From positions 51,646,001 through 51,710,000 of the forward strand of contig OX597814.1 of NCBI GenBank assembly GCA_951406725.2: a DNA stretch of 64,000 nt, in the 5' to 3' direction. This DNA is from Octopus vulgaris (lineage: Eukaryota). Below are positions 12,311-58,084 of the stretch, piece by piece. Within the stretch, counting starts at the first letter, position 1, and each line of letters begins with the position of its first letter. The notes beneath the pieces were generated by a model. The model saw only the letters and a program-made list of their open reading frames with translations. It had not been told where the DNA came from and did not search any database. Position numbers and translations under genes: made by a program.

Positions 12311-13115
12311 GTAAGCCTGCTTTTTCTCTTTGTTGTGTTTTCCAGAAAAATATACTATTACATTATCTAAGGAAAGTTATTCTATACATTATTATATTGC
12401 TTATAATGCAGGTATTTTTTTTATTTCTTTCATATCACTTTATATGAACAATAGTGGTGCCATTGATTACAGGTTTCAAGTTGGCTCTGCATTTCTAACA
12501 GTGAGAGTGACATGCTTGTATCTAATTTGGTATAGAACAAATATTGCAAGACATTTCTTTAATTTAAAGGACTAGTTTGTTTGTTTGTTTGTTTTATTGT
12601 TTTCTCACTTTATATGGTACAACATTTTTTTTTGTTTTTGTTATCCACTTTCTCTTTATCTTTCTGTTTTGCTCACCTTGCACATTCAACAGATCAAATG
12701 TAACTCCTTCCTCTTCAAGTCTTTGTAGATTCTCTCTATTCATTACCACATTTCTTACATAATCTTCAAAATCTTTAAGTGGTGCTGATTCTGTTATTTT
12801 AATTTAATTTTATTTTATTTATAAATAAAAATGACTGAAGTCACTAATGTCTTTTGCTAACAAATAAAAAGTAATGATGCTAGTTCAGTTTTCTGTTTCC
12901 TTCTGAATTTTGAAAATGATAATTTTATTAAAAAGATGTTGAAACACAAGGTTGATATAAAATCCTTTAAATTTTCAAGCAAGCTTTACATTTATTGTTA
13001 ATATTCTCTCCACTTCTCTCTCTCTCTCTCTTTTCACCCTTCTTTCTCCTCATACATACACACTCACATATGTATCACTATCTAAAAATAATTTTTTTTT
13101 TGTTTTTTTGTTTAG

Positions 13116-13343
13116 ATGAATTTCAAGACTATTTCAAGAATTTTAAAAATCTCGTTGAAGAAACTTACAGCATGAACAATAAATCGAAAATTACATTGAT
13201 AACACACAGCATGGGCAGTCCAACAATGCTGTATTTTCTAAATAATCGAACACAGGCATGGAAGGATAAATATATTGGGAAGATGATTACAATTTCAGGA
13301 GTTTGGGGTGGTGCTGTGAAACCTCTTCGGCTCATGATTTCTG
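13116..13343 (+). CDS. PLA2G15: PLA2G15-like coding exon carrying the catalytic serine (exon 5 equivalent)
   Basis: tttag acceptor, gtaaga donor. Translates NEFQDYFKNFKNLVEETYSMNNKSKITLITHSMGSPTMLYFLNNRTQAWKDKYIGKMITISGVWGGAVKPLRLMIS; contains the HSMG nucleophile elbow and WKDKYI. Confidence 0.95.
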
Positions 13344-15721
13344 GTAAGAATGTACTAATGTGAATCTGTGTATGTTATGGTTGTCATCATTTCTAATCTT
13401 AATATCCTATATTTTATATGCCTTTTTTCTTTCTTTCTTGTTAGCATTGGGTGGAAGGAAGGGCTTTTCAAAACTCTAGATATTTGCACACTATCAGTAG
13501 CTGAGCAGGATTTGCGAGTACTGTTTTTATATTTCATATGAAAAATGACCATTTTAAAGTACTGACTGTTGCTGTAGAGTTAGTCGAATGATCTTGACAT
13601 TTACTCATTTAGTCAAAGATTACTGTGTTTTTACCACATATAGCACCAGGTGGTGCTATAAAGTTAGACATGACCTGGGCCTATACTGGCTGAAACCTAT
13701 CAAAGTTATAGTCTTTATTAGAGATATGACATCACACTTGTTACAAATAAGTAATTTTATGAAATGTGGTTGAAACATTTGTTATGTGGCTGGGAAGCCA
13801 ACTTCTTAACTAAACATGCACACTTATACCTATGGCGTATCTGTGTTTCTTACACATCTATACCTATAAATATATGAATGTCAAGCTAAATGAAAGCATG
13901 GTTGCCCTTGCATACAGGCTTGTCCTTTGCAACCCTCTCTAGCTGAGCATCCCCAATCTTGTGGGCTCATAAGTGCTGATGCCACATAAAAAGCACCTGT
14001 GCCAGTGATGCATAAAAGCACCCAGTACACTCTGTAAAGTAATTGGCATTAGGAAGGGCATCTAGCTGTAGTAACAGAATCAGACATGGAACCTGAACAG
14101 CCCTTCAGCTGGTCAATTCCTGTCAAACTGTCCAACCCATGCCAACATGGAAAACAGGCATTAAACGACGACGATGATGTATATCTCACACACATCATTA
14201 TCATCATCATCATTTAACATCCATTTTCCCCGCTGGTATGGGTTGGATGGTTTCACAGGATCCAGTGAGCCACACAACTACATTGAACTTCAATGCCAGT
14301 TTCTGTTGCTGGATGCCCTTTCTAACCCTGACCACATTACAGTGTGTACTGGATGCTTCATTGATGGTGCTGGTACTTGTGAAGTCACTAAGTAACTTGA
14401 AAGACAAGAAAAATAAAAGCTCCTTTGACCGAGAGAGTGCATTTGAGAGGATAAAGTTGGAGAGATAAGCACAGGTGTCTTGTTATAGAGGAGATACACG
14501 GTTATCTTGCATTTTGTAAGGATGGGTGTAACTGGAAAGAAGATATAAATGGTAGTGAAAAGGTGAACATAAGAGAGAATATGGACAGTGGATCAGGGAG
14601 GAAGGACAGATGGTAATTTCATAAGACCATGAGAGGAGAGTGATAGATGGTTAGATATAGGGGTAGAGGTTAATGTAGTGAGTGATAAACAAGGATGACT
14701 GTGGTTGCTGGTAAATATCAGTATGGAGGAGAGAGAGGTGAGAGAGAGAGAGAAGTGATTCTGAAAGGAGGTGATGATAAGTGGCTACAGTATCATAAAC
14801 TTGTAGGTAGGTCAAGATGTAGGGAGATGATGCATAAAGTGTAAAAGTTGTGAAGAGGGGGATGCACAATGACTGAGTTAGAGGTTAGGGGTACAAAAGT
14901 GTGGCTGCAGTAAATAACAAAGGGGTAGGCATCTATGACAGATATGAGATGTTGAGAATGATAGCAGATATGTGAGGTATTAACCATGAGATATGGTAGA
15001 CCTAAGATGTAACCCAGAGGAGAGGGAGAAATATCTGGGGGCACAGTAATGGGAAAGAATAGTCTGAGGAAGGATGAGAATGAGGAATGAATGTTAATAG
15101 AAAGTGGTTCCAGAGGAAGGAGGAGATAACTGGTAACACAAAAGGAGTATGAAATATGTGCCAATGCAGTTCTTAAATTATTACAGCTACTGAATAGCAC
15201 TATAGTTAGAAGAGTGGGTGTTAGGAAGATGAAATATGGAGAATGCTTCACAAGTGGTGTAGGGAAGGAGGTTAAATGCAAGGGCAGGGCCCAGTATGTT
15301 CGGGCATAAGCATTTTGTCTTTAGAACCTCACTTTTGCAGTGATGGATGGGTCTTTTCAAGCTCAGCAAATTGCCAATCTTCTCAGTCCTTTGTCATCTC
15401 CTCCAAGAAGCTGAACAACTTGAAATCAATCTTTATTACATCATCTCATGTCTTCTTGGGTTTCCTTCTTCCACAAACTCCATCCACCTCAAGCAATTAG
15501 CTTTTCTTTATACATACACATCACATGACCAAACCAGTGCAGTCCTCTCATTTGCTACATCTGAACCCGCTTATCACTATCTGTTTATCATACTATATGT
15601 ATATACAGCATTAAAAGTATGCTACTATAGAATTGTCTGAGATAAAATCTCTTCACAGACTTCTGTTAAAAAGCAGTATGTATTGGAGCAAGACAAAAAT
15701 TGTCATTACAATGACTCATGA

Positions 15722-15766
15722 GAATGACAGATGCTGTTTCACCTTTCTTGAGGCTTGTCAGTATCA
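15722..15766 (-). ncRNA. Degenerate minimal hammerhead motif in the last PLA2G15 intron
   Basis: Minus strand: CTGACAA-gcct-caagaa-aggt-GAAA-cag-cat-ctg-TC. One core substitution (CTGACGA to CTGACAA, CpG-decay type); stem I poorly paired. Confidence 0.4.
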
Positions 15767-16431
15767 TGCTTAAACAAAATTTGTCTTGGTGTATTAAAAA
15801 TAGTTAACAATACATTCATGAGTATTGGGGAAGCTTGCAGAGCTCCATAAAAAACTAGTGTATGCATTGAAACAGCCACCATGAATATAAACTTTTGTTG
15901 TTGCTTAAGATAGGCTACAGAGAAGATTCATCATGAAGTTAAATAACATCTAGGATTACTGAAAATAATGATATAGCAATAATATTTTTTAATAAATGAA
16001 GACAATATTATCTTAGCAATAACAATTTTGGTAATTTTTTTGTTGGTTGTAAAACAAGTTACTAAGGCTAAAGGAAATTTACTTCAAGGATACTTGTTAA
16101 AGGGTTTTTAGTTTTTTCCTAAAAACTTTTTTCAACTAAAAGTAAAAAATCTTGCTTCAAAGTTGCCCATAATTACTTATTTATGTTTATATGTGATTGT
16201 TTCTGTCAATGTGTACATGTATCTATATCCTGTTAGTTGTGTTGTGTATATATGTGTAGACTATTTAACAATAATGAATGGCTTGGAATTGAATAAAAGT
16301 GTCCAGAAAATTATTATTATTATACGAATGATGGTAATTAACAGTAATGTTTCAAAATACATTTCCTCTCTTTCTCAAACATATTTTGTAAAGTAATATT
16401 TCAGGATATTTTTTTCTGCTTTTATTTACAG

Positions 16432-16946
16432 GAGATAATCTTGGCATTCTTGTACTGAAAGAACATGTTATTCGAATATACCAGCGCAGTGCCTCTTCAA
16501 CAGCTTGGCTTATGCCATACGATACTTTCTGGAAATCTGATGAAATTCTTGTTTCCCGTCCTGGTCGCAATTATACTGTTAAAGACTATAAACAGTTGTT
16601 TAAAGATTTGAATTATACAGCTGGCTATGAAATGCGTAAAGACACAGAGAATCTTGTGAAAGACCTCCGTCCACCTGGAGTGGAAGTTCATTGTATATAT
16701 GGAATCAATGTATCTACACCGGCTACATATCTATATGATAAAGGATTTCCTGATAGTAAACCAAAAATAATATATGGACCTGGAGATGGGACTGTAAACT
16801 TAGACAGTTTAAAAGGCTGTCTTAGATGGGCACAAGAACAAAAACAGTCTGTTCACAGTTATACTGTTGCAAATGAAGATCATTTGAAAATATTGCAAAG
16901 TAAAAAATTGATTGATCTGATACAAGATATAGTAACCAAGAAATGA
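16432..16946 (+). CDS. PLA2G15: PLA2G15-like last coding exon carrying the catalytic Asp and His
   Basis: tttacag acceptor. Translates GDNLGIL...STAWLMPY...PPGVEVHCIYG...GDGTVNL...EDHLKIL...VTKK, ending in TGA. The five exons total 1115 nt and join in frame (about 371 aa visible). Confidence 0.95.
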
Positions 16947-21324: not shown

Positions 21325-23030
21325 TTTGTATGATGCATGTGTACGTACAACCATGCTACATGGTAGTGAAACATGGGCCGTGACTGCTGAGGATATGCGT
21401 AAGCTCGCAAGAAATGAAGCCAGTATGCTCCGATGGATGTGTAATGTCAGTGTTCATAATCGTCAGAGTGTAAGTACCTTGAGAGAAAAGTTGAACCTAA
21501 GAAGCGTCAGTTGTGGTGTGCAAGAGAGACGGCTGCGCTGGTATGGTCATGTGACGAGAATGGCTGAAGATAGTTGTGTGCAAAAGTGCTACACCCTAGC
21601 AGTTGAGGGAACCTGTGGAAGAGGTAGACCCAGGAAAACCTGGGACGAGGTGGTGAAGCACGACCATCGAACTTTAGGTCTCACTAAGGAAATGACTAGA
21701 GACCAAGACCTATGGAAGTATGCTGTGCGTGAGAAGACCAGGCAAGACTAGTCAGGCCATAACCCGTGGCCCCTACCTGGGACGTAGTCAGTCCACCTGT
21801 GCATACCTTCCTTCCTTCTTGTGACACTTGTGAAGACCTGTTGAGGCAAGTGAAAATCAAATCAAAACAAATCAAAATAGATGAACATCAATGGAATTTG
21901 TATCTTTGTGGTACCAGTGCCGGTGGCACACAAGAAAACCATCCGAACGTGGCGGTAGCCAGTACCGCATCGACTGGCCTCCGTGCTGTGGGCACGTAAC
22001 AAACACCATCCGATCGTGGCCGTTCGTCAGCCTCATCTGGCACCTGTGTCGTTGGCACATAAAAACACCATCCGAAGACCCGGCAAGACTAGTCAGGCCA
22101 TAACCCGTGGCCCCTACCTGGGACGTAATCAGTCCACCTGTGCATACCTTCCTTCTTGTGACACTTGTGAAGACCTTTTGAGGCAAGTGAAAATCAAAAC
22201 AAATCAAAATAGATGAACATCAATGGAATTTGTATCTTTGTGGTACCAGTGCCGGTGGCACACAAGAAAACCATCCGAACGTGGCGGTAGCCAGTACCGC
22301 ATCGACTGGCCTCCGTGCTGTGGGCACATAACAAACACCATCCGATCGTGGCCGTTCGCCAGCCTCATCTGGCACCTGTGTCGGTGGCACATAAAAACAC
22401 CATCCGAAGACCCGGCAAGACTAGTCAGGCCATAACCCGTGGCCCCTACCTGGGACGTAGTCAGTCCACCTGTGCATACCTTCCTTCTTGTGACACTTGT
22501 GAAGACCTGTTGAGGCAAGTGAAAATCAATCAAAACAAATCAAAATAGATGAACATCAATGGAATTTGTATCTTTGTGGTACCAGTGCCGGTGGCACACA
22601 AGAAAACCATCCGAACGTGGCCGTAGCCAGTACCGCATCGACTAGCCTCCGTGCTGCGGGCACGTAACAAACACCATCCGATCGTGGCCGTTCGCCAGCC
22701 TCATCTGGCACCTGTGTCGGTGGCACATAAAAACACCATCCGAGCGTGGCCGTCTGCCAGCCTCGTCTGGCACCTGTGTCGGTGGCACATAAAAAACACC
22801 ATCCGAGCGTGGCCGTTTGCCAGCCTCGTCTGGCACCTGTGTCGGTGGCACATAAAATCACCCACTACACTCTCGGAGTGGTTGGTATTAGGAAGGGCAT
22901 CCAGCTGTAGAAACACTGCCAGATCTGACTGGCCTGGTGCAGCCTTCGGGCTCCCCAGACCCCAGTTGAACCGTCCAACCCATGCTAGCATGGAAAACGG
23001 ACGCTAAATGAATGATGATGATGATGATGA
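21325..23030 (+). mobile_element. Young 5'-truncated RTE LINE with triplicated 3' UTR and (GAT)n tail
   Basis: Open ORF end YDACVRTTMLHGSETW...RRLRWYGHV...GRGRPRKTW with stop at 21751; CpGs retained; tail gatgatgat at about 23011-23030. Confidence 0.9.
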
Positions 23031-24290: not shown

Positions 24291-25184
24291 TACAAGGTCG
24301 GATCAATAAGTATACAGACTGTTGCCATAGTAACAAAGCTTAAAGCACACTGAGAGAAGCCGTTTGGCAAAAAATTGACCTTGAACTCTGTTGTGCATAC
24401 ACACTAAGTTTTAATGTTCTAGCTCACTTCCACTGTTTACAGCAGTGCTTGGAAGGAAGGTATGTAGCATGTGATTGTCGCATTGACCATGACAGAGAAA
24501 GTTATCATGGTGATACCTGCTCAGAGGCCCACACAAAGTTGAAGAAAGTGTATGGAGAGGAATATGTGAGCCGCACACAAGTGTACAAGTGTTTCAGACG
24601 TTTCCAAGATGGCCAAAAAATGTCAATATTGACAAACATTCCAGGAGACCTGCAACCAGCAGAACTGAGGAAAACATTCCAGATGTGCATGCAGCTGTGA
24701 GAGAAAATCATTGAATCACCATCCGTGAGTTATCAGAGGATGTGCAGCTTGGTTACAGTTCAGTCCATTATCACTGAAGATTTGGGTTTGAGATGCATGT
24801 CTGCTAAGTTTGTGCCAAAACTGCTTTCAGCTGGCCAAAAAGACACTTGGGTTTCAGTTGCACATGATCACTTTGATTGTATCAAGAACAATGAAAACTT
24901 TTTGAAATGTTTGCAATAGGCCTCTGAGCAGATATTAGCAAGCTTTTGGCAAAATTTGATGCAGATTCTCTGCTCAACTTTCTGTCATGGTCAATGTGGC
25001 GATCACATGCTACACATCTCCCTTCCAAACACTGCTGTAAACAGTGGGAGTGAGCTAGAATGTTAAAAATTAGTGTGCAAGCACAACAGAGATTAAGGTC
25101 AATCTGCACCAAGCAGCTTCACTCTGCATGTTTTAGCTTCGTTACCATGGCAACAGTCTGGATACTTACTGATCAGAATACGTA
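24291..25184 (+). mobile_element. Internally deleted mariner DNA transposon with ~210-bp TIRs
   Basis: TA at both ends; 24293-24503 is inverted at 24975-25182. Transposase HTH remnants KLKKVYGEEYVSRTQVYKCFRRFQDG and ITEDLGLRCMSAKFVPKLLS; no DDD domain. Confidence 0.88.
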
Positions 25185-35100: not shown

Positions 35101-35161
35101 GTAATTAGTGAATGGAAGAAATGGAGTTGAACGAAGATTGTACAGAATTCCTTTTATTACA

Positions 35162-35243
35162 TTCTACACATGTTTCAAAGAAGCCACAATTTTCCAAATT
35201 CTGATTAAATAAGGATACCATATTGTAGCTTTCTCTTCAGGAA
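35162..35243 (-). ncRNA. Hammerhead candidate, left arm of the 436-bp palindrome
   Basis: Minus strand: ttc-CTGAAGA-gaaagctacaat...attgtggcttcttt-GAAA-c-atgt-g-TA-gaa, followed by AATAAA. Confidence 0.6.
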
Positions 35244-35397
35244 AAACCAGGAATTACGTTGTCAGAACAAAACAAAACAAAGGCGCAGCAGAGCAATTCA
35301 AACGAGGACGCTCCATGGGCTCTTAAGGAGCGTCCTCGTTCGAATTGCTCTGCTGCGCCTTTGTTTTGTTTTGTTCTGACAACGTAATTCCTGGTTT

Positions 35398-35477
35398 TTC
35401 CTGAAGAGAAAGCTGCAATATGGTATCCTTATTTAATCAGAATTTGGAAAATTGTGGCCTTTGAAACATGTGTAGAA
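35398..35477 (+). ncRNA. Hammerhead candidate, right arm of the 436-bp palindrome
   Basis: ttc-CTGAAGA(35401)-gaaagctgcaat...attgtggccttt-GAAA(35463)-c-atgt-g-TA-gaa; AATAAA at 35481-35486. Confidence 0.6.
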
Positions 35478-35810
35478 TGTAATAAAAGGAATTCTGTACA
35501 ATCTTCGTTCAACTCCATTTCTTCCATTCACTAATTATATTAAACTTCAATTATCCGCGCCAACACATGGTTGCAACACCATATGGTCATATCTCCAACC
35601 GTGTTTTTTCTGCTGTGATTTTTGCTACCCAGGTATCGGTTAAATTTTTGAATAATCCGTAACAAGATAATTCATCTTTCCATTTCAACAGATATATATA
35701 TATATGTATGTATATATATATATATGTATGTATATATATATATGTATGTGTATATATATATATGTATGTGTATATATATATATGTATGTGTATATATATA
35801 TATGTATGTG

Positions 35811-38246: not shown

Positions 38247-38285
<39 letters not shown>

Positions 38286-38628
38286 CAGAGATGTACTTGC
38301 ATAGCAAGTGACCTGTTCTGAGATCGTGTGCTGAAGCAAAAACAACTGCAGCATGGAAGGTATTTATAAATCATTTAAAATCACACAAAACCCATTAGAT
38401 CCACTTCAACATTTATATTTGATTTGTCAAAATATTTTCGTTGCTTTGAGACTGTGACCTGTTCACTGACAAAATTCTGTGCTGCAGCATGGAATTTTGT
38501 CAGTGAACAGGTCACGTTCTCAAAGCAATGAAAATATTTTGACAAATCAAATATAAATATTGAAGTGGATCAAATGGTTTTTGCATTTTTTTGAATGACT
38601 TATAAACATCTTCCTTGCTGCAATTGTG

Positions 38629-38673
<45 letters not shown>

Positions 38674-38884: not shown

Positions 38885-40098
38885 ATCATCATCATCATCA
38901 TCATCATTGTTTAACATCCATTGTCCAATGCTGGCATGGGTTGGATGGTTTGACCAGGGCTGGCAAGCTGGAAAGCTGCACTAGACTCCAGTCTGATTTA
39001 GCATGGTTTCTGCAGCTGGATGCCCTTCCTAACACCAACCACAATGAAAGTGTAATGGGTGTTTTACATGCCACTGGCACGGGGGCCATTTGCATGACAC
39101 CAGTACCTACCACAACAATGACAACCACTCCAAGAGTGTAATGGATGTATTTACGTCCTACCAGCATGGGTGCCATTTTTGTGACATCGATATCTGCCAT
39201 GACTGTGGTTTTACTTGGTTAGATGGGTCATCTCAAGCATGACATAATGCCAAAGGTCTCAGTCATTACCTCCATGCTGCCCAACACTTGAAAGGAACTT
39301 TTCCCCTGGATAATAGAGGCAATCTACTACCTCTAACTTATCCCTCTGGCAGTTGATGGAGTCTATTTTCTGTACATTTTTGGTGTTTATTGAATTTTCC
39401 CTGTTAACCTTTCTTTGATATTGCTGTAATTCTTATGTATTCATAGCTTATATCAGGTACATCCTATGGAGTTTCTACCTATGCCTTTTCTACAGATTTA
39501 GCAGGGCCATCTAACTGAAAGGATTTGTGATTTGTCTGCCTTCCTTCTTACTAAGACTTTGGTTTTTGCTAGGTTAACCCTAAGGCCCTTCGATTCTAGA
39601 CCTTGTTTTCATACCTGAAACTTCTCCTCTAGTTCTGATAGTGATTCACTTATAAGAACAAGATCATCAGCATAGCAGAGCCCCCAGGGGCAGCCTGTCT
39701 TAAATTCCTCTGTTATTGCCAGGAGGGCTATGATGAACAAGAGGGGGCTGAGGACCGATGCTTGGTGAGCCCTTACTTGTACCCTGAATTCTTCGCTGTA
39801 CTCATTGCCAATGCTCACTTTTCTGGTAGCATCCCTGTACGTGGCTTGTACAGCTCTCACCAATCACTTGTCTTTCCCTAGCTTCCACATTGACCACCAG
39901 ATAAGGGATCAGAGGACCCTGTCAAAAGCTTTCTTTAAGTCAACAAAAGCCAAGTACAGAGGTTTATCTTTGGTTATGCATTTCTCCTGCAGCTTACTAG
40001 AAATATAGCATCAGTGGTACTTCTCCCTGGCACAAAACCAAACTGCATCTTATCTAGACTAACTTTCTCCCTAATTAGTTGGGCTATGACAACCTCTG
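38885..40098 (-). mobile_element. RTE LINE, RT to 3' tail, internally deleted
   Basis: QFGFVPGRST, FRVQVRAHQASVLSPLLFII, CYADDLVLI; (CAT)n at about 38885-38907. Confidence 0.85.
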
Positions 40099-40324
40099 TA
40101 ACATACATACATACATACATACATACATACATACATACATACATGCATACATGCATACATACACACACATACATACATACACACTTACATAAAGGTGGCT
40201 TGAGCATCAGACTAAATGCATTGCAATATTTAACCCAACTTCTTAGGTCAGGTTTCAAATCCACACCAGGATTAATATCTTCTTTTTATTCTCCTTGGAG
40301 CGAAGTCAATAAGTTAATTACTTA

Positions 40325-43739: not shown

Positions 43740-44470
43740 AGGTCTTCTTTAGAACCTCATATCACCAGACATCTCAGTCAAGTGTCATTTCCTCTGTGAG
43801 TCCCAACATCTTGAGATCAGTCCTCACCACTTTATCCCATGTCTTCCTGGGTCTCCCTCTTCCACAGGTGCCATCCACTTTCAGTGATTGGCACTTCTAA
43901 ACAGCTGTCTTCATTCATGCACATCACATGTCCAAACCACATAGACTTCTCTCTTGCATGCTGCATTTGAGTCCTCTTATGCTCTACTTTTCTCTCAACA
44001 CACTAGTGCTTTGTTGTTCATGCACATTGATGCTGCACATCCAGCGGAGCTCACTGCCTTCATTTCTGTCTCATCTATGCATGTCCTTTGCATTCAGAGC
44101 CCAAGTTTCACTACCACAGAGTATAGTGGTTCATACACAAGCATCATACAATCTACCTTTCACTCTGAGAGAGAGTCCTTTTGTTGTCAGCAGAGGTTGT
44201 AGCTCTCTGAACTTTTCTCCATCTTATCTGTATTCTACAAACAATACTTTCAGAACATCCACACCCCCACCTTGCTAATTTGGTCACCTAGGTAACAGAA
44301 ACTATCTACTACCCCAAGAGAGCCTACTTGGCATTTGAAAGAATCTAACTCCTGTGTGCTCTTAGTGCTTATTGTTCCTGCACATCTACCACACACAAAG
44401 ATTTTATCCGTTAATCTACCTGTTATTCCACTGCACCTCTTATGTGTCCATAGCTTACATTTGGTGCAGC
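43740..44470 (-). mobile_element. RTE LINE C-terminal fragment
   Basis: CTKCKLWTHKRCSGITGRL...CGRC...VVDSFCYLGD; related tail at 42675-42990. Confidence 0.8.
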
Positions 44471-44906
44471 AGATATATATATATATTACATGGAAAAATG
44501 CGAGCAAGAGAAATAATATTCTTAAGACTATAAACCTGGAAAATTACAGGACAAGTTATAACACTTGGAAAAGTTCAGGACAACTTATTACACTTGGAAA
44601 AGTAGAGAGCAAGCAAATTTTAACTTAGAATATTGCAGCTAAGGATAAAATCTCAAATAAAATATTTAGATTTAGAAAATATTAGCTTTTATTAAAACTA
44701 AACATTCTATAACAAATTATTACTTATATTTGCTATTACTTGTTAATTCTATAAAAAATAAAAAATTAGCTTGCTTACCAACCACATGGTTATGGGTTCA
44801 GTCCCACTGTGTGGCACCTTGGGCAAGTTTCTTCTACTATAGCCTCGGGCTGACCAAAGCCTTGTGAGTGGATTTGGTAGACGGAAACTGAAAGGAGCCC
44901 ATCGTA

Positions 44907-44960
<54 letters not shown>

Positions 44961-45076
44961 AGAAGGCATTATATATACATGCCAAACGCTAAGAGGGACA
45001 ATTAGTCATTTCTACCAAAAATATTACTAATCCCACCGAATGCAATTTTTCAAAGTAAGACATTTAAAAAAATATA

Positions 45077-45122
45077 GACCTGTATCACAGTGATTTCATA
45101 CTTACGTACTCATCAGCAGGCC
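45077..45122 (-). ncRNA. Canonical minimal type-I hammerhead ribozyme
   Basis: Minus strand: ggcctg-CTGATGA-gtac-gtaa-gtat-GAAA-tcac-t-gtga-TA-caggtc. 6-bp stem I, 4-bp stem II with a GNRA loop, palindromic stem III, AUA site. Confidence 0.85.
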
Positions 45123-46492
45123 AGAATGCATTATAAATAAACAACGACCCTGCCCCGCTTAAGTTGATCAGCTAACTGTTCAACATCAACGAAGCACATG
45201 GGTGAGTTTACATATATTACAATCGGTCAAATGGCAAACTTTTACGAATTGCATTTCGGGAGAGGAAAAGTTTTTTCGGAATAAAAATTTAGCAATTAAG
45301 GACAACTACTTAATAAGGAAAACTTAGCAAGAAATTGTCAGGTAGATAGCGTAAAAACCTCATAAGAGAAAAAATTTCGAAAATATTTATTTCTTATTGA
45401 ACATATTAATTTATATATAGAGGGCATTATACATATATGCCAGAAGGCATTATATATACATGCCAAACGCTAAGAGGGACAATTAGTCATTTCTACCAAA
45501 AATATTACTAATCCCACCGAATGCAATTTTTGAAATCACTGTGATACAGGTCTATATTTTTTTAAATGTCTTACTTTGAAAAATTGCATTCGGTGGGATT
45601 AGTAATATTTTTGGTAGAAATGACTAATTGTCCCTCTTAGCGTTTGGCATGTATATATAATGCCTTCTGGCATGTATGTATAATGCCCTCTATATATAAA
45701 TTAATATGTTCAATAAGAAATAATTATTTTCGAAATTTTTTCTCTTATGAGGTTTTTACGCTATCTACCTGACAATTTCTTGCTAAGTTTTCCTTATTAA
45801 GTAGTTGTCCTTAATTGCTAAATATATATATATATATATATGTATATACAAAGTGAGATAGGGGTTATGAGTGTAACCCACTATGGGATATCAGTTATCC
45901 AATATACTGCTGGTGAAGTACCCAAAAAGCAAATACATAAATGCTTATAATTGCAATGCAATTAATTCATTTATTGTAATAGATGGGCGAAGGTAAAATA
46001 TTTTACCTCAAATTCATAATACAAATAAGAAAATGGAGGCCTCATCAGAGATTATAAAGTACAATTATAAAAATATATAAATGCAAATATAAATATGAAA
46101 CAAAATACACATACACAAGAATCTATATATATATAGGCCTTGAGATATATATATAAGTAACTCATTTTTAACTGCATATTACCTCAGTACATCTGACTAA
46201 TATAGGCACAATGAGATACTCTTATCTACAGGCTGAAACAGCTGTAAGATCCATTTTATGTGTATTATTTTTATGGTATTATCTTACTTACTGATGTATA
46301 TTGTTTTATTCTGTTGGATTTGGATGTTACTATTTAAGTAGTTAATAAATAATATGAATTGGTAATATCTGTAAGTCGATGATTGAAAGGAATCTGTTCC
46401 TCCATTTTCTTATTTGTATATATGTATATATATATATATATATATAAATATAAATAAATGGAGTTTAACGCAGGTGTAATTCAAATACTTTT

Positions 46493-54488: not shown

Positions 54489-57400
54489 CATACACATATA
54501 TATGTATATATCTATGTGTGTGTGTCTTTGTGTCTATGTTTGTCCCCTTATCACTGCTTGACAACCAGTGTTGGTGTGTTGCCATCCCCATAACTTAGCA
54601 GTTTGGCAAAAGAGACTGGTAGAATAAGTACTAGGCTTTAAAAAATAAATCCTGTGATTGATTTATTCAACTAAAACCCTTCGAATTGGTGCTCCAGCAT
54701 GGCAGCAGTTTGATTGAAAACTGCTAAGCCAGGGGGCTGCACCAGGTTCCAATTTGATTTGGCAAAGTTTCTATGGTTTGATGCCCTTCCTAATGCCAAC
54801 CACTGAGAGTGTCGTGGGTGATTTTTACATGCCACTGGCGCAGGTACCATTCACTTGACACCAGCATCAGCTACGACTACGGTCTCACTTGGCTTGACAG
54901 GTCTACACAAGCTCAGTATATTACCAACAGTCTTGGTCTCCTGTCACTGCCTCCATGAGGCCCAATGCTCAAACGGTGCTTTAAATGTGTCACCAGCATG
55001 GGTAACAGTCAGATGGCACTGGCATTGGCCACATCTACGATTTCACTGAGCTCAACAGGTCTTCACAAGCACAGCATATCACCCAACGATTGAAGGGTGC
55101 TTTTAATGGGCCAGTTATAAAACACTGCACAAAATAAATCACAAAAATTAGCTGGGTAAGCATTTTATAGTGTTAAAAATTAAAATTCTAAATAACTTTT
55201 ATACCTTACCGTAGACAAGTGTATTCTGTTTTCAGTACTTCCACTATATTCTGCATGAAATGAAGGCATGTGTAAAGTTTTCCAAATATTTGTTTCATGA
55301 AACAACAAAATGGAAGAAAGTAAATAAGCAAAGTAACAATTTAAGTATTTATATAGTGAAAATATAGTTCAACTGAAAATTTTGCTTTTGTAAAATTGTT
55401 TCCCCTTGCACCATAATCAGAGTATTAGTTAAACAGAATTATTTTTATGTGAGGGTGCATGGCTTTGTGGTTAGGGTGTTGCACTCATGATTGCATGATT
55501 GCGGTTTGAATTACTGGCCATGTGGTATGTTGTGATCAAAACACTACATCTCACATTGCTCCGCAATCAACTTGACATCTGATGTGTGGCACACAGCACA
55601 CCTGATCAGGCAAAACTAATTTGATAAAGGTAATGAGCTAATGTACAACACAAACATTTGATCACCAAATTCCACGGAGGTCGACTTGGCCTTTCATCCT
55701 TTCGGGGGTCGATTAAATAAGTATCAGTTATGCACTGGGGTCGATATAATCAACTTAATCCATTTGTCTGTCCATATTTGTCCCCTCTGTGTGTAGCCCC
55801 TTGTGGGCAGTAAAGAAATAAGAATAAACAAATTATTTGTGCAAGTTATTCAGCAAGAAATTGCAAACCTGTCTTTTTATGGACTATGAGAGATTACCAT
55901 CATAAGAGACTACTGGCTGATTGCTGAGCAACGTGAGATGTAGTGTTTTGATCAAGATCACAAAATACCACATGGCCAGTAATTCAAACCACAATCTTGC
56001 AATCATGAGTGCAACACCCTAACCACAATTCCATGCACCCTGACATAAAAATAATTCTGTTTAACTAATACCCTGACAATGGAGTGGGGAGAAAATTTTA
56101 CAAAAGTTAAATTTTCAGTTGAACTATATTTTCACTATATAAATACTCAAATTGTTGCTTTGCTTGTTTACTTTCTTCTATTTTGTTGATTCACGAAACA
56201 AATATTTCATTGTGCTTGTACAAAAAATTTGAAATAAATTCTAATTTTCAAAAAATAAATTTTTAATAAATTCTAATAAGATTCAGTAAAACTAAGCAAA
56301 ATTATCATACGTATGTTTGCAATATATTTGTTCGAGCCATATCAGCAAGGAAAGCAGACATTAAATGATGATGATGTTATCAATAAATTTAAATAGTTTG
56401 TTTATGGTGATCAAATGTTTGCGCTGTACATTAGCTCACTCCCTTTATCAAATTAGTGTTGCCTGAACAAGTTATGTAAATATTACATAACATCAAAACC
56501 ACCCCTTCGATCCACCAATACTCCATTCATAATCTACCCATTCTAATTAAGTTAGATGTTCTTAAAAGCTGGGTCAAGGGTATCTTAGATATACTGTGTT
56601 TTTCCCTCTCTCCCTTTACCATCACTTTCTGTTCTCCTTATTTTCTCTCCTGCTCCTACTACTCCTACTCTCGCACCTTCTTCTCTTCCTTCTTGCTGTT
56701 TTTTTTTTTTTGCTTCTGTTTTGATGTTTTTATTTGGCCAAATGTAGCGTATTTAATTTATGCCATTTTTTCATTAATCTTTATTCTATCAAACCTAGTC
56801 ACATGCTCTCTGGAGCTATGAACTAGTGGTGATAGGACAAATGCTGTGGTACAACAGCTGTGGTAGCAGAACAAATAAAGTAGTAGGCCAAGTATGGTGG
56901 TGAGACAAGTTTGGCTATAGGTCCAATAAGTCACAGACCAAATTCCTCAGTCTTTACAAATGCAATTATATTCACTATTTATCCCTTCACTACAAACACA
57001 CACTGAACTTTGTCCTTTGCACTCATAGGCAACACACACACACAAAAAGAAAAAGTGAATCTGTTAATCTTTTTTTTTTAATACAAAATTTAATCCCATT
57101 TCATGTGTTTACCCCTCCCTCTGCAGCCTGACTTAGTCATCATCTACTCTGAAAACAATTTAAATGCTTTAGTTGAACAAGTTCTTTTCTTTGAGATGAA
57201 AGGTCAATCTCAAAACAAATTCAATCTTCTCTCTTTGGCATATAACCTTAATCAGACTCATGAACATTCACTATTTTCCCTTGTTTTCTCACCACTCATT
57301 ACTGTTTCTTTCCCCATCTATCACACATTCCTCTTTTTGCATGAAGTATACCATAATTTCAATTCTCCTCCTACTCCTACTCAACATACACACACACACG

Positions 57401-58084
57401 TATGCACACGCATGCATGCACACACACACACTCATACGCACATGATGCAAAGGAAGATAAAAAAATAAAATCTAAGGAGACTAGTAGAGGTCTACATCTG
57501 CAAAAACTATATTCGTTTTGCAACTGAAAACAAAGAAAAGCCTTCTATCAGACACCCAAAGAATGTCACAGTCTGAAAAACCATAAACTCTTCCCCAACC
57601 CTCTGCAATGGCACAGGAATTTAAGAAATTTTTACACTTTACCAACATATATATATATATACACATACATACATATATATATCATCATCATCATCGTCAT
57701 TGTTTAACATCCGTTTTCCATGCTAGCATGGGCTGGACAGTTCAACCAGGGTCTGGGAAGAGTTTATGGTATTTCAGACTGTGACATTCTTTGGGTGTCT
57801 GATAGAAGGCTTTTCTTTGTTTTCAGTTACAAAACGAATATAGTTTTTGTAGATGTAGACCTCTACTAGTCTCCTTAGATTTTATTTTTTTATCTTCCTT
57901 TGCATCATGTGTGTATGAGTGTGTGTGTGTGTGCATGCATGCGTGCATGTGTGTGTGTATGTGTTGAGTAGGAGTAGGAGGAGAATTGAAGTTATGGTAT
58001 ACTTCATGCAAAAAGTTGTTTGTTTTTTTTTTGACATACATTCACTGCCTTTATTCGAATTAATTTTGAAAAATCTTGCTTCTC

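Follow-up and report, generated by a model that had tools for sequence, protein, structure and literature searches.

A 481-nt unit in tandem and inverted form between two TA tracts

In the 64-kb stretch of octopus DNA analysed here (hereafter the window), a 481-nt unit is found at positions 44957-45823 as one full pass, a partial second pass in tandem and an inverted copy, and (TA)n borders it on both sides (Table 1). Within the unit, positions are given as u, that is, the position minus 44956. The first-pass annotation of this DNA had deduced a period of 481 from the recurrence of 44957-45050 at 45438-45531. This period was found again, as the sequence matched itself at an offset of 481 with zero mismatches over 44952-45050, the first mismatches lying at positions 44951 and 45051. 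The same annotation had described 45531-45823 as an inverted copy that starts inside the ribozyme and reads across the unit junction, and indeed this segment matches the reverse complement of u331-481 and u1-142 at all but 2 of 293 bases (u430 and u480). It starts inside helix II, 16 bases upstream of the predicted cut, spans the unit junction and contains only the 3' half of the hammerhead. Over u1-94 all three passes are identical, and over u95-142 the two passes are identical as well. That both ends are (TA)n and the copies nearly identical was likewise recovered, with TRF on the left and by eye on the right. The tandem with its inverted copy is therefore confirmed as an observation, and it is highly probable that the insertion is young and not an artefact. 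No second copy of the unit was found elsewhere in the 64-kb window.

Table 1. Coordinates of the features at the insertion, in positions of the window; helices and cut are predictions.
Feature	Position	Strand	Remark
Left (TA)n target tract	44905..44956 (44905-44957 by TRF)		tail of SINE-like repeat 44764-44925
First full unit, u1-481; left arm, first pass	44957..45437	- (RNA sense)	non-coding, 32% GC
Predicted long rod, hammerhead as side branch	45020..45296	-	fold prediction and variants
Complete type I hammerhead	45073..45126	-	strict motif scan, fold, Rfam score
Helix I, 6 bp	45122-45117/45082-45077	-	predicted
Helix II, 4 bp, GUAA loop	45109-45106/45101-45098	-	predicted
Helix III, 4 bp, palindromic	45094-45091/45087-45084	-	predicted
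Predicted cut (u126)	45083/45082	-	hammerhead prediction
Two 23-nt internal repeats spanning the unit junction	45419..45465	+	TA-like context of left-arm start
Left arm, second and partial pass, u1-94	45438..45531	-	identical to first pass
Head-to-head joint of both arms	45531		1 shared base, 4/5 alike
Right (inverted) arm, u142 down to u1, then u481 down to about u331-333	45531..45823	+	
Right (TA)n target tract	about 45823-45841		by eye

The unit carries one complete type I hammerhead

To define the ribozyme, we used a strict motif scan, which gave a single match in the window, whereas a match was obtained in 1 of 200 dinucleotide shuffles. The core (CUGAUGA, GAAA and an AUA triplet) agrees with CUGANGA / GAAA / NUH in type I order and the three helices are present around it, so that the minus-strand hammerhead and the cut site proposed in the first-pass annotation hold as a complete type I motif. 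With Rfam, no hammerhead match reached the gathering score and none appeared in an E-value scan of 1.2 kb; on 121 bases, Hammerhead_HH9 was matched at 18.8 bits (E 0.014), its gathering score being 52. In full-length contexts, helices I and II are predicted with a probability of about 0.9, while helix III is found in only 2% of the predicted ensemble, core bases mispairing with it, and, in all such contexts tried, the catalytic fold is predicted to be 3 kcal/mol less stable than the best fold. Transcripts that begin at 45160-45170 are predicted to misfold by about 14 kcal/mol, unlike one that begins at 45230. The palindrome of helix III is also predicted to be able to self-dimerise (-12.1 kcal/mol), and the GUAA loop II and the U-rich strand beyond helix I could perhaps form a loop 1-loop 2 contact. 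AUA triplets are reported as slow in engineered hammerheads (PMC3138052). Because of this triplet and of the competing fold, calling the hammerhead active is uncertain; by analogy with the dimer or protein requirement reported for axolotl retrozymes (PMC7229834) and for the anole Penelope (PMC11167929), its activity may be low or may depend on a dimer or on a protein. Our expectation was that, in read-through transcripts, the hammerhead would be blocked by the inverted arm, but the fold disagrees (helix I 0.89, helix II 0.98), and this idea was rejected. In total, the locus holds one complete hammerhead core. For this reason it cannot release a monomer or a circle by itself, and the circular or concatemeric RNA source put forward in the first-pass annotation fits the locus as a template from elsewhere but not as a product of this copy.

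The unit is non-coding and highly self-paired

The longest open frame of the unit has 54 codons. When the hammerhead strand was folded as a circle, the energy was -123.6 kcal/mol, compared with -87.2 +/- 5.6 in 40 shuffles, none of which was as stable (z -6.6); the opposite strand gave a z of -3.3. Among 54 GC-matched stretches of the window, 3 were as stable as the unit, and all 3 contain microsatellite tracts. Linear permutations of the unit reached -123.8 to -130.3 kcal/mol, as good as the circle, and hence the fold is no proof of circularity. We then compared the predicted rod with the variants of the unit in public contigs. Seventeen common variants were picked before the test, namely those with at least 10 contigs in run X5 or present in all 4 runs, together with the junction variant. 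One of these 17 breaks a predicted pair where 6.5 were expected (P 0.0009), bearing in mind that a single sequence gave the fold, so that its private mutations are partly bound to lie in unpaired places. For all variants the count was 5 of 36 against 11.0 expected (P 0.005), and in the 19 minor variants alone the signal was absent (4 breaking, 4.5 expected, P 0.49). With the variants at 45109 and 45123, helix II is retained and helix I becomes longer. Since every kept pair results from a one-sided G-U/A-U change, with no compensatory change on both sides, the variants support the rod without proving it. Rfam matches to microRNAs were rejected, as they arise from the inverted repeat and the TA tracts. 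A sigma-70 promoter scan was discarded too, being irrelevant to animal DNA, and its result was below chance.

The unit belongs to a family present in public contigs

Of 24 public runs listed (8 studies, 5 organism labels), 20 contain part of the unit, and in X5 4017 contigs, a number of contigs and not of copies, lie on exactly one unit with many alleles. The unit is thus multi-copy, and the single-copy state that the first-pass annotation had named as one case against its reading is not what was found. X5 is dominated by another subfamily of the unit. The four runs examined for coverage each cover the unit continuously, with every one of the 29 bins filled; a single joint was listed, that of the unit closing on itself. 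In X2, X11 and X15 (3 of 4 runs, 2 studies), contigs extend across the junction from 45437 to 44957 by at least 31 letters to either side, and X5 shows it with 27 letters; X2, X4, X11 and X15 are presumed to be RNA, and their contigs were used for bridging and not as a measure of expression. The presence of this junction in other runs indicates that the head-to-tail form is a trait of the family and not a quirk of the assembly.

Compared with the form that prevails in X2, X11 and X15, the locus copy is changed at about 7-8 positions out of 481. At u371 (45327), both arms carry G, while the other letter is near-fixed in six of six runs: it makes up 705312 of 705869 in depth in X5 and all the listed depth in X1, X2, X4, X11 and X15, although these figures cover about 76% of X5 and 80% of X1, so that the shared allele may be less rare than it appears. 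Where the arms disagree (u430 and u480), the right arm carries the common letter of the family, which suggests that the left arm was mutated later. We also looked at the loose ends of the contigs, 20 of 73 being shown. Among these, the beginnings of the long ones resemble diverged sister units; two ends consist of (TA)n and one turns to the opposite strand. In X11, a contig passes into (TA)n at 45290, which is 2-3 bases from the start of the right arm, and has a different joint, another X11 contig joins at 45409 (a start from (TA)n), and an X15 contig switches to the opposite strand at 45256/45071; each of these ends is a single contig among the 20 of 73 shown. No link of the unit to a coding element was seen among the same 20 ends, where the 30 letters given per end could miss one. 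The ends resembling sister units come from X2, X11 and X15, and one of them has the same palindromic helix III with another centre and another helix I.

Origin of the insertion

In RNA sense, the two arms meet head to head and the 3' end of each arm faces its own TA tract, a geometry which fits priming by the 3'-OH of each flank. The smallest template that explains both arms measures 1.3 units (623 nt if linear), and the earlier claim that the unit had been read more than once round was upheld by this size, a minimum, and by the head-to-tail junction in other samples. Reading through the predicted cut site, the left arm continues for 449 bases and the right arm for 16 bases, and in both the site is crossed with no base added or lost. 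A linear monomer cut at this site is therefore excluded as template, unless the enzyme jumped cleanly. Moreover, the rare G at u371, common to both arms, makes it likely that both came from one template or source. At the left start, 9 of 10 bases are alike between the TA tract and the template, against about 2 at the right start; the two starts are about 150 nt apart, and a target-site duplication is unreadable within (TA)n.

We give about an even chance to an origin in which Penelope-type priming from both DNA ends, on an uncut RNA that was most likely a ligated circle, wrote the insertion into (TA)n in one event, leaving a young dead-end copy of a non-LTR retrozyme. The more specific proposal, that a Penelope enzyme took a single viroid-like RNA circle as template and, from two distinct fixed starts, wrote it simultaneously into the two ends of a cut (TA)n, is tentative. 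In the origin favoured here, transcripts of tandem source arrays would cut themselves into monomers, which a host ligase would then close, as in coral, mussel and axolotl. A Penelope RT/GIY-YIG protein would cut both strands of (TA)n, and from the left DNA end copying would start at u1 and proceed for 575 nt (1.2 turns), while from the right end it would start at about u332 and proceed for 293 nt. Finally, the two cDNAs would be joined head to head with little homology. In favour of this origin, the anole Penelope protein in purified form was shown to cut and extend AT-rich DNA on both strands and to start inside the RNA (PMC11167929). Other points count against it: the anole protein prefers unprocessed RNA and starts without target homology (PMC11167929), the latter in contrast with the left start here; the distance between the starts is to be compared with a Penelope tail of 30-40 nt; and the unit is longer than the circles of 170-400 nt shown in invertebrates (PMC7229834).

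The same element and the same two-ended insertion could also be obtained with no circle, the template being an uncut linear multimer from a tandem array or a cut monomer copied with seamless jumps. We consider this somewhat unlikely. A linear template of 1.3 units accounts for both arms, the linear permutations fold as well as the circle, and the AUA triplet with the barrier of 3 kcal/mol would leave much RNA uncut; in addition, eight of nine Xenopus retrozyme dimers stayed uncut in vitro (bioRxiv 10.64898/2026.07.22.740005). On the other hand, the identity of the passes over u1-94 and u95-142 fits one small molecule, even though a young array would look the same, and the pairing closes across the unit junction with a core that is intact in the locus copy. 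It is improbable that the locus is instead the 5'-truncated end, with pseudo-LTR partial tandem and inverted copy, of an autonomous Penelope having 481-nt hammerhead repeats in its terminal region. Such elements typically lie in microsatellites as a partial tandem next to an inverted truncated copy (PMC8557442, PMC3846280) and tandem minimal hammerheads occur in axolotl Penelopes (PMC7229834), but here the period is 481 with no ORF above 54 codons, the helices have canonical sizes and not those of the minimal Penelope-like form (PMC4209133), and the continuous cover in four of four runs, with a single listed joint, closes the unit on itself. Furthermore, neither a GIY-YIG match nor a partner Penelope ORF was found among the 35 of 51 flanking ORFs scanned, nor such an ORF in the unit, the one RT match reading as an RTE-like LINE. 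Because of the closed junction and the lack of coding, our reading moved from a truncated pseudo-LTR to a retrozyme written by Penelope machinery. In this way the two options of the first-pass annotation are compatible and read best together: from its Penelope tandem with inversion, the footprint layout stands, and the pseudo-LTR of a coding element is not supported, as nothing links the unit to an ORF.

Another way to obtain the inverted arm from a single primed DNA end would be fold-back self-priming of the cDNA, or a later inverted duplication at the DNA level, to which we also assign little probability. Palindrome self-priming was proposed for head-to-head Penelope repeats (PMC3846280), the palindrome of helix III lies 5 bases from the joint and the shared u371 allele would be accounted for as well. 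Nevertheless, the right arm runs without a break into the 39-nt spacer, which could not be made by fold-back of the left cDNA, whereas fold-back of the right cDNA ends at u331 and leaves u1-330 in need of a second cDNA. The joint has an exact homology of 1 base, and the end of the right arm on (TA)n is clean and close to a start found in another copy. As for the tandem or the inversion being an artefact of assembly, this is very improbable. The central inversion joint is absent among the 15 of 174 public-contig joints listed and is not the one joint listed on the unit alone, contigs mapped to the locus being dominated by the neighbouring SINE and giving no view of the empty site or of the central joint. 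Against an artefact, the arms differ at 2 sites with the family's common letter in the right arm at both, the tandem junction is present in other samples, and two other TA-flanked inverted pairs of the window, 87-96% alike, are too diverged to be fold-back artefacts.

These pairs came from a survey of the 16 stretches between TA tracts in the window. Three of them, including this locus, are mostly filled by an inverted pair of at least 87%; three more have weaker inverted matches (74-79%) and one a short inverted match with its parts far apart. The first of the two other pairs (35101-35692) is 96% alike and of unrelated sequence; its right arm is about 150 bases longer, and each arm bears a CTGAAGAGAAA core-like motif without helix II. 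The second (38284-38632) is older, at 87%, has no spacer and has a left arm about 57 bases longer. Since unrelated sequences of the window form such inverted pairs, the two-armed footprint is ordinary here and not specific to the 481-nt unit.

Comparison with retrozymes and Penelope-like elements

The locus fits an element built like a non-LTR retrozyme that works like a Penelope insertion, and the sequence-level features of retrozymes are found in it. As in the metazoan non-LTR retrozymes of coral, mussel, axolotl and vertebrates, the unit is a non-coding, low-GC (<50%) head-to-tail repeat with one type I hammerhead, highly self-paired as a monomer and present in many copies, and Penelope mobilisation has been proposed for retrozymes (PMC7229834). 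Cervera and de la Pena (2020, PMC7229834) showed such repeats as circles and proposed primed circles and Penelope partners, while Li, Clavereau and Pollet (2026, bioRxiv 10.64898/2026.07.22.740005) linked vertebrate retrozymes to pseudo-LTRs by sequence. The unit differs from these retrozymes by a length which exceeds that of the invertebrate circles (PMC7229834) but lies within the 51-972 bp of Li et al., by a longer, palindromic helix III and by its AUA triplet. Two consecutive complete hammerheads, by which Li et al. define an active retrozyme, are not present in the locus copy; this concerns the copy and not the family. The word inverted is absent from the main text of PMC7229834 and the two-armed layout was not found in the passages considered of that paper and of the preprint of Li et al., bearing in mind that their supplements, in particular supplementary figure S9 of PMC7229834, may show inverted copies. 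In an index-level literature search, no description of octopus or cephalopod retrozymes, or of inverted retrozyme insertions, was found.

Penelope partial tandems with an inverted copy were described by Craig et al. (2021, PMC8557442) and Arkhipova et al. (2013, PMC3846280), and hammerhead pairs on opposite strands by Cervera and de la Pena (2014, PMC4209133). With these GIY-YIG Penelope-like elements, the locus shares the partial tandem and the adjacent inverted truncated copy, their head-to-head orientation, the AT-rich or microsatellite target and a hammerhead in the repeat; a likeness is also seen with the non-autonomous Penelope-like forms of Chlamys, which have head-to-tail insertions (PMC8557442, PMC3846280, PMC4209133). 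Unlike them, it has no RT/GIY-YIG ORF, the repeated unit is the whole element and the hammerhead is canonical and not minimal. The optional Penelope-like tail of 30-40 bp is not seen either, in view of the spacing of the arm starts. Poseidon_Ac of Anolis, studied in vitro by Frangieh et al. (2024, PMC11167929), resembles the proposed mechanism in that both strands are cut and extended at AT-rich targets from preferred internal starts. It differs in being autonomous, in having two adjacent starts without target homology and in having been used, in the experiments considered here, with linear RNA only.

The return of retrozymes to DNA and the cause of the tandem and inverted repeats of Penelope elements are both stated as open in the papers cited here, where the retrozyme-Penelope link is built on shared motifs, co-occurrence and sequence trees. 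A retrozyme with a Penelope footprint and mapped starts makes both questions testable. If the proposal of one circle copied from two starts is true, the insertion would be direct genomic evidence for animal ribozyme circles as a template of transposition, and the unexplained inverted repeats of Penelope elements would come from two-ended priming. By itself the locus adds little, being a short dead-end copy, but it gives a mechanistic hint that deserves to be followed in the genome as a whole.

Surroundings of the insertion in the window

The SINE-like repeat at 44764-44925, whose TA tail is the insertion target, has a very high copy number, with at least 4 more copies in the window (88-94%). 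On the plus strand, 12971-16946 contains exons of an LCAT-family gene (lysosomal phospholipase A2-like, PF02450), the insertion lying about 28 kb beyond the last exon found. Broken LINE remnants with RT and PHD-finger matches are present on the minus strand at 39400-40100 and 44253-44543; as Penelope sequences these nearby matches were rejected, since by eye they are RTE-type LINE remnants. Also on the minus strand, identical CTGACGAAGCATAGAGAAA motifs with the same downstream sequence were detected at 33-51 and 1652-1670, each directly after (TA)n, and are possibly cut-off hammerhead-like ends. Inverted pairs of 85-97% without TA flanks, at 24374-25103, 55284-56207 and 57333-58015, are possibly DNA-transposon remnants or opposed repeats. 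Finally, a 332-bp tandem of 3 copies, 96% alike, lies at 21733-22743 and adjoins repeats of 62-63 bp.
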